64,000 nucleotides of DNA from Escherichia phage Pu-Krd-SF1. A program made the translations under genes and the position numbers. This document shows positions 49,901-50,680 of the stretch, piece after piece (position 1 is the first letter of the stretch; every line of letters begins with the position of its first letter). The notes under the pieces were generated by a model. The model did not search any database and was not told where the DNA came from. It saw nothing but the letters and a program-made list of their open reading frames with translations. The stretch is taken from sequence record PQ249395. One strand, 5' to 3'.

Positions 49901-50680
49901 ATGAATTATACTAAAGTATATAATAATTTAATTAAGAAAGGAAAACTCAGAAAATTAGATAAATCTAAATTAAATTTTTATACGGAAAAGCATCATATTA
50001 TTCCATCTTGTATTGGTGGTAATGATGATTCTGATAATCTAGTTTTATTAACAGCTAGAGAGCATTTTATAGCCCATTGGCTTTTAGCTAAAATTCATTA
50101 TAATTCGCCTGGATTAATTTATGCATAGTGGTCATTTTATAATTTTGGAGAAGATTCTTTAGGAAGAAATCTCAAATTAACTTCAAGAGGATATCAGTTA
50201 GTTAGAGAAAAATTTTCAAAAATACATTCTAATACAATGAAAGAAATGTGGAAGTCTAATGAATACAGAGAAAAACGTTCGATAACATTAAGTCTTCCTG
50301 AAATAAGGGCTAAAATTTCAGAATCCCAGTTAGAAGCACAAAACAAACCGGAAGTTAAAGAAAAAATATCTAAAGGGGTGAAAGCTGCTTTTAAACGACC
50401 GGGAGTTAAAGAAAAACACTCTGCTGCAGTCAAAAAATCTTTGAATAATTTTGAAACTAAAAAGAAACAATCAAATTCATCTAAAATTAGACAAAGAACT
50501 GGTAAACATTGGCAAGACTATGACTTACTTTATAAGTTATGGATTAAATTAAATAGACCTAAACGTGGGTCATTCGGAACTTATATAAGTAAATTAGGAT
50601 ATCCAAAATCTAATTATCATCGATTGATTGTACAATTTAATGAAGATTATGAAAGGTCTAATAATGAAAACTGTAGTTAA
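49901..50680 (+). pseudogene. HNH homing endonuclease (Mob-like) interrupted by one in-frame TAG
   Basis: N-part with HHIIPSCIGG…N…H motif ends at TAG 50126-50128; same frame stays open through 50680; N-terminus paralogous to the gene at 12082-12894. Confidence 0.6.

Follow-up and report, generated by a model that had tools for sequence, protein, structure and literature searches.

The genome of Escherichia phage Pu-Krd-SF1 (sequence record PQ249395) contains a homing endonuclease reading frame that is broken by one in-frame amber codon, which raises the question of whether this gene has been disabled, is still expressed through the stop, has been split into useful parts, or was never broken at all. 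The 64,000-nt stretch of DNA analysed here is referred to below as the window. Translation of the locus on the plus strand yields 75 codons (MNYTK...GLIYA), the TAG, 183 further codons and then TAA, a frame of 260 codons including the terminal stop with a single internal TAG. The locus is the phage T4 gene mobD carrying a recent G-to-A nonsense mutation, very probably a very young pseudogene in the degeneration stage of the homing endonuclease cycle.

Identity and surroundings of the locus

The frame is orthologous to mobD of phage T4T (T4Tp099), from which it differs at 2 of 780 nucleotides. One difference is a synonymous T/C at 50101, and the other is an A/G at 50127, giving TAG here and TGG (Trp76) in T4. 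In the T4T annotation, mobD encodes an H-N-H family homing endonuclease located between mobD.1 and nrdC.11, and alignment of this annotation to the window places the locus at the same position and in the same transcription direction. Nucleotide identity across the frame is 99.6-99.7% with T4 and 99.7-100% with the five Pu-Krd-SF records, and it is 99.6-99.9% over 780 nt with the 40 mobD records from outside the Pu-Krd-SF group. The protein also matches the PHROG 655 family, annotated as homing endonuclease (E = 1.3e-56). With 778 of 780 nt in common, the locus is the T4 gene; its neighbours and its nrdC.11 overlap are as in T4, and its product is alike except at residue 76, where Trp is replaced by the amber codon so that only 75 of the 259 residues can be made here. 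Because the uninterrupted 259-codon frame ends in a TAG at codon 76, the locus represents a disrupted mobD allele and not a functional member of the family. This agrees with the original prediction of an HNH homing endonuclease gene with exactly one in-frame TAG and no indels. The gene itself is already known and annotated in T4, as is the phenomenon, and five public Pu-Krd-SF genome records already contain the split form, annotated as two ORFs.

The 183 codons downstream of the TAG match the intact orthologs with no further substitutions. In DNA of about 65% A+T, an open frame of this length after a stop is not a chance feature, and the full-length orthologs directly identify it as a gene remnant.

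Based on the neighbouring genes, the window derives from a T4-type phage (genus Tequatrovirus) and is oriented opposite to the standard T4 map. Its genes include gp13 and gp14 (neck), baseplate and tail genes, tk, rI, regB, denV, a tRNA cluster and the nrdC.x series. The features discussed in this work are listed in Table 1.

Table 1. Coordinates of the disrupted mobD locus, its surroundings and other genes of the window that bear on its interpretation
Feature	Position	Strand	Basis and remarks
mobD ortholog, free-standing HNH homing endonuclease gene	49901..50680	+	259 codons plus stop, one internal amber codon
Codons still translatable (n = 75)	49901..50125	+	Contains the whole HNH (beta-beta-alpha-metal) core: HH31-32, N46, H55
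TAG amber codon, from TGG (Trp76)	50126..50128	+	G-to-A at 50127
C-terminal 183 codons plus TAA, downstream of the stop	50129..50680	+	Presumed DNA-binding region
mobD cassette	49852..50659	+	Delimited against the mobD-less phage AR1
23-codon upstream ORF (MFISSGTDMCYKCKAKLNETKNQ)	49833..49904	+	Read from the sequence; TGA overlaps the mobD ATG (ATGA)
nrdC.11 (nucleotidyltransferase)	50664..51674	+	T4T and Pu-Krd-SF5 annotations; ORF intact; 17-nt overlap of its start with the mobD end
Second HNH gene, between tail genes 18 and 19	5475..6032	-	CAA-to-TAA at 5816-5814
Paralogous HNH homing endonuclease gene, intact, 270 aa, between genes 13 and 14	12082..12894	-	BLASTP to MobD
Phage tRNA cluster, 8 genes	34896..36284	+	ARAGORN
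GIY-YIG (seg-like) homing endonuclease gene, between gene 49 and nrdD	60616-61437 (L019 28863-29600)	+	Intact in the window

The limits of the mobD cassette were set by comparison with phage AR1, whose homology to the window ends at 49851 and restarts at 50660; between these points AR1 has about 960 bp with two unrelated ORFs. The first codons of the short ORF preceding mobD are common to the AR1 ORF ar1_101 (173 aa), and the 5' end of this short ORF is a remnant of the ORF that was displaced by mobD. Its ATGA overlap with the mobD start suggests translational coupling. A late-promoter-like TATAAATG is located at 49863-49870, inside the cassette. On the other side of mobD, nrdC.11 is shortened in Pu-Krd-SF3 and SF4 by an in-frame deletion of 24 nt at 50801-50824 (plus strand), which removes eight codons of an Asn/Thr/Ser-rich stretch.

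Of 50,697 phage records searched, 45 contain the full 780-nt mobD frame, all with at least 99.6% identity, whereas about 500-660 related records have the same flanks. With the Salmonella phage pSe_SNUABM_01 as a reference, mobD shows 99.7% identity between flanks of 92.8% (mobD.1) and 95.7% (nrdC.11). The HNH gene between genes 18 and 19 (99.6%) lies between gp18 (95.0%) and gp19 (95.7%), and the HNH gene between genes 13 and 14 (98.3%) between gp13 (94.1%) and gp14 (94.6%). Homing genes typically occur sporadically at a fixed site and have diverged less than their flanks, and mobD shows both traits; greater conservation of such cassettes than of the essential genes around them is the expected mark of recent horizontal spread.

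Origin and distribution of the amber codon

The ancestral codon is TGG, as found at codon 76 in an alignment of five relatives (T4T, G2540-3, WL-3, pSe_SNUABM_01 and CM8). Eighteen phage records are one base away from the mobD of the window, including RB3, RB5-10, G28, G2133, G2540-3, CM8, Lv5cm, F25, FL08 and FL12; G2540-3 and CM8 were the two of these eighteen that were aligned, and the differing base in both is the G of TGG. The original prediction had assigned the TAG to a former Leu codon. The orthologs have Trp76 instead, and Leu stands opposite the TAG only in the alignment with the distant paralog. A natural protein end at this position had been named as a point to check among homologs, and the intact orthologs read TGG and extend over 259 codons.

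The comparison of related isolates that had been proposed confines the TAG to Pu-Krd-SF3, SF4, SF5, SF6 and SF7, the only records (5 of the 45 with mobD) matching exactly a 58-nt probe that includes the TAG. The remaining 40 mobD records lack the TAG, each having one mismatch to the same 58-mer. An exact 38-mer around the site, in either its TAG or its TGG version, had no matches in IMG/VR or JGI metagenome contigs. The five carriers were isolated from piglet faeces in Russia and propagated on E. coli B.

The five Pu-Krd-SF isolates are strongly mosaic, and comparison of the window (1-64000) with SF3 shows near-identical blocks alternating with blocks that have diverged by 2-15%; an example of the latter is 13-19 kb, which covers wac and genes 12 to 10. 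The window is the same as SF5 over positions 1 to 52595 save for one base, and is identical to SF3, SF4 and SF6 over 52000 to 60000, a region (52-60 kb) across which SF5 and SF7 diverge from it by about 2.7%. Divergence from SF3 amounts to 2-15% over most of the 64 kb, and the two are nearly identical only at about 47.2-63.2 kb.

A sequencing or assembly error in an intact gene would also produce an isolated TAG, and two features of the records speak for it: all five TAG-bearing genomes come from one laboratory and source, and the homopolymer indels of SF3 and SF4 (see below) look like possible errors. However, the same base recurs in five genomes that were deposited separately and show substantial differences outside this site, and the change is a substitution outside a homopolymer run, an unusual type of consensus error. 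We therefore regard an error as extremely improbable. Because the five carrier genomes are mosaics differing by 2-15% elsewhere, the TAG appears to be a real, inherited allele of a recombining local phage population and not a one-off consensus error, a point that only the sequencing reads could prove.

Consequences of the stop for MobD

The HNH core of MobD comprises residues 25-59 (EKHHIIP...DNLVLL...REH), which align to the HNH motif of the group II intron maturase 6me0, and it lies wholly upstream of the stop. This alignment gives the His...Asn...His motif of a beta-beta-alpha-metal core, with Pfam HNH scores that are sub-threshold (cutoff 21.4 bits; 18.2 bits for the whole protein and, only just below, 21.0 bits for the 75-aa fragment). 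The proteins MobA-E have been placed in group 1 of the His-Me finger nucleases (Jablonska et al. 2017). As had been predicted, the N-terminal part of MobD is paralogous to the product of the HNH gene between genes 13 and 14, with 46% identity over 117 aa (BLASTP, E = 3e-31). The similarity ends at about residue 117, and the C-terminal regions of the two proteins are unrelated in sequence.

The C-terminal 183 aa showed no Pfam domain above threshold. Among relatives of solved structure, the HNH core was matched weakly and the C-terminal region had no match. Three short basic repeats, P(E/G)(I/V)(R/K)(A/E)K(I/H)S, can be recognized in this part by eye. They had been described as NUMOD-like, a label that finds no backing in Pfam, where NUMOD gave no match at E ≤ 1 with the full protein or at E ≤ 10 with the C-terminal 183 aa.

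The G-to-A transition at 50127 converts Trp76 (TGG) to amber, so that translation ends after 75 residues. The product keeps the small HNH nuclease core and lacks the 183-residue C-terminal region, which is presumed to be the target-DNA binder in Mob proteins. We infer that a 75-residue HNH stub devoid of its targeting region cannot home, since truncated MobD would probably be unable to find and nick its target site, leaving the cassette as a passenger. This would correspond to degeneration in the homing endonuclease cycle of invasion, fixation, decay and loss, with loss of activity as the likely outcome and relaxed selection as its presumed cause.

[quoted passage not shown] They share with MobD a free-standing gene and an N-terminal HNH domain followed by a distinct C-terminal region. 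In contrast to them, T4 MobD has its activity listed as "ND" and its target as not determined (PMC2988022), which weighs against the loss-of-function reading in that the intact protein offers no known function as a yardstick. Against decay, it may also be noted that the ORF past the TAG has no lesion at all in SF5, SF6 and SF7 or in the window, which leaves room for a use of the C-terminal part. An intact downstream ORF equally fits a very young lesion.

The split gene could also yield useful fragments, either an HNH module of 75 aa on its own or a C-terminal DNA-binding protein of 147 aa translated from an ATG at 50237, the latter acting for example as a target-site shield. The ORF 50237-50680 is open, and gene callers recorded it as a separate CDS in SF5 and SF6. 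However, the ATG at 50237 is preceded by TCTAATACA, which contains no purine-rich ribosome-binding sequence, and the frameshift of SF3 and SF4 falls within the 147-aa fragment. Promoter-like motifs in the region (10) are as frequent as expected from shuffled sequence (9.9); the scan of 49200-51000 for promoters and terminators gave counts equal to the shuffle expectation, with nothing tied to 50127. Expression of functional fragments is thus considered vanishingly improbable.

Alternatively, full-length MobD could be made in spite of the TAG, perhaps at a deliberately low level, through readthrough, recoding or a suppressor tRNA of the phage or its host. The intact downstream frame with its lack of further substitutions would suit such expression, and T4-type phages carry tRNA genes able to mutate to suppressors. 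The eight tRNA genes of the window identified by ARAGORN have the anticodons taa, tcc, tgg, tga, tgt, cat, gta and tct. There is no CUA anticodon among these eight, and amber suppression by a phage tRNA was rejected on this ground. The window tRNAs include tRNA-Tyr (GTA) and no tRNA-Gln; directly upstream of tRNA-Leu is an intact HNH gene at 34281-34889 (plus strand), a position where SF3 has tRNA-Gln.

Genome-wide recoding of TAG was likewise rejected. The 76 annotated genes mapped onto the window end in TAA (50 genes), TGA (20) or TAG (6, including gp15, gene 5.4 and tk), and the only mapped genes of the window with internal stops are mobD and the HNH gene between genes 18 and 19. The TAG is moreover derived from an orthologous TGG and limited to five related isolates, all of them propagated on E. 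coli B, on which T4 amber mutants classically fail to grow. The suggestion of suppressor-dependent expression found no support, and we consider readthrough or suppression of the mobD TAG very improbable.

Probable decay of homing endonuclease genes in the phage population

The nonsense mutation of mobD is accompanied by lesions in other homing endonuclease genes. The original prediction included a second HNH gene with a single nonsense codon, and such a gene is present between tail genes 18 and 19, with TAA in place of a CAA (Gln). The codon is CAA and the ORF is intact in pSe_SNUABM_01, T6 and Pu-Krd-SF3. Since SF3 is identical to the window over 1051 nt at this gene except for the one base that creates the TAA, this knock-out is younger than the mobD TAG, and it is confined to SF5, SF6, SF7 and the window. 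On the plus strand of the window, each of the two lesions is a G-to-A change.

The mobD gene has also been hit elsewhere. WL-3 carries a +2 nt frameshift at about 50569, SF3 and SF4 have an additional A at 50431, and SF4 also lacks a T at 49975, the SF3 and SF4 changes being in homopolymer runs where sequencing error is possible. Thus, the gene bears the marks of a young pseudogene, with a derived disabling mutation and independent lesions in relatives, those of SF3 and SF4 being homopolymer indels. The seg-like GIY-YIG gene of Pu-Krd-SF3 has a +T frameshift at window position 61349. Altogether, three to five independent disabling point lesions are distributed over mobD, the gene 18/19 HNH gene and the seg-like gene, in surroundings that are otherwise almost identical between isolates.

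A close parallel is an intron endonuclease of T4, I-TevIII, whose defect in this phage is a truncation. I-TevIII is described as defunct in T4 and active in RB3 in a review that also cites the degeneration cycle (PMC2988022). As with mobD, a homing endonuclease has been disabled in one lineage and is intact in relatives, and the cassette has outlasted the enzyme. The two cases differ in that I-TevIII is intron-encoded whereas mobD is free-standing, and in that the mobD lesion is a single point mutation and much younger.

These knock-outs could have been positively selected, if active HNH nickases become costly once all co-infecting relatives carry them and the phage population is actively shedding homing endonuclease function. 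Lineage-specific substitutions were counted in the HNH genes located within the first 52 kb, of which there are four; a count of private substitutions over the whole window was dropped because the nearest non-siblings are only about 96% identical and the siblings are mosaic. There is one such substitution in mobD and one in the gene 18/19 HNH gene (each nonsense), none in the gene 13/14 HNH gene, which has identical copies in several unrelated phages, and at most three in the HNH gene beside tRNA-Leu. That a nonsense mutation is the sole lineage-specific substitution in both disrupted genes argues for selection, as random substitutions seldom make stops: only 6-7% of all single-base changes would do so (7.3% in mobD, 6.1% in the gene 18/19 HNH gene) and 10-11% of G:C-to-A:T transitions (9.7% and 11.2%, respectively). 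In addition, both single-base indels in the 16-kb tract that is near-identical in the window and SF3 fall in homing endonuclease genes.

Under neutrality, the probability of two nonsense mutations when the four HNH genes have no more than five such substitutions between them is about 0.04-0.08 before post-hoc correction, a value that comes from tiny numbers and from a case picked for its stops. Mere tolerance of disabling mutations in these genes, together with their removal everywhere else, would lead to this pattern as well, and the HNH genes between genes 13 and 14 and beside tRNA-Leu are still intact. Positive selection for the knock-outs is accordingly rated as unlikely. The pattern of nonsense lesions shows an absence of purifying selection and does not demonstrate positive selection for inactivation; between selection against active copies, which the original prediction had raised, and neutral decay, the data cannot tell. 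There is a slim chance that this co-circulating population is losing its homing endonuclease genes to disabling lesions at a rate above that of neutral decay. If true, nickase activity would be actively selected against when no sites are left for a homing gene to invade.

Decay of a homing endonuclease gene after its spread is textbook behaviour, and the mobD amber allele is in itself of little import. What it provides is a clean and dated example, one base away from a widespread allele and with a second, younger knock-out in a related isolate. It also serves as a warning against reading in-frame stops in phage homing endonuclease genes as signs of suppression or recoding.
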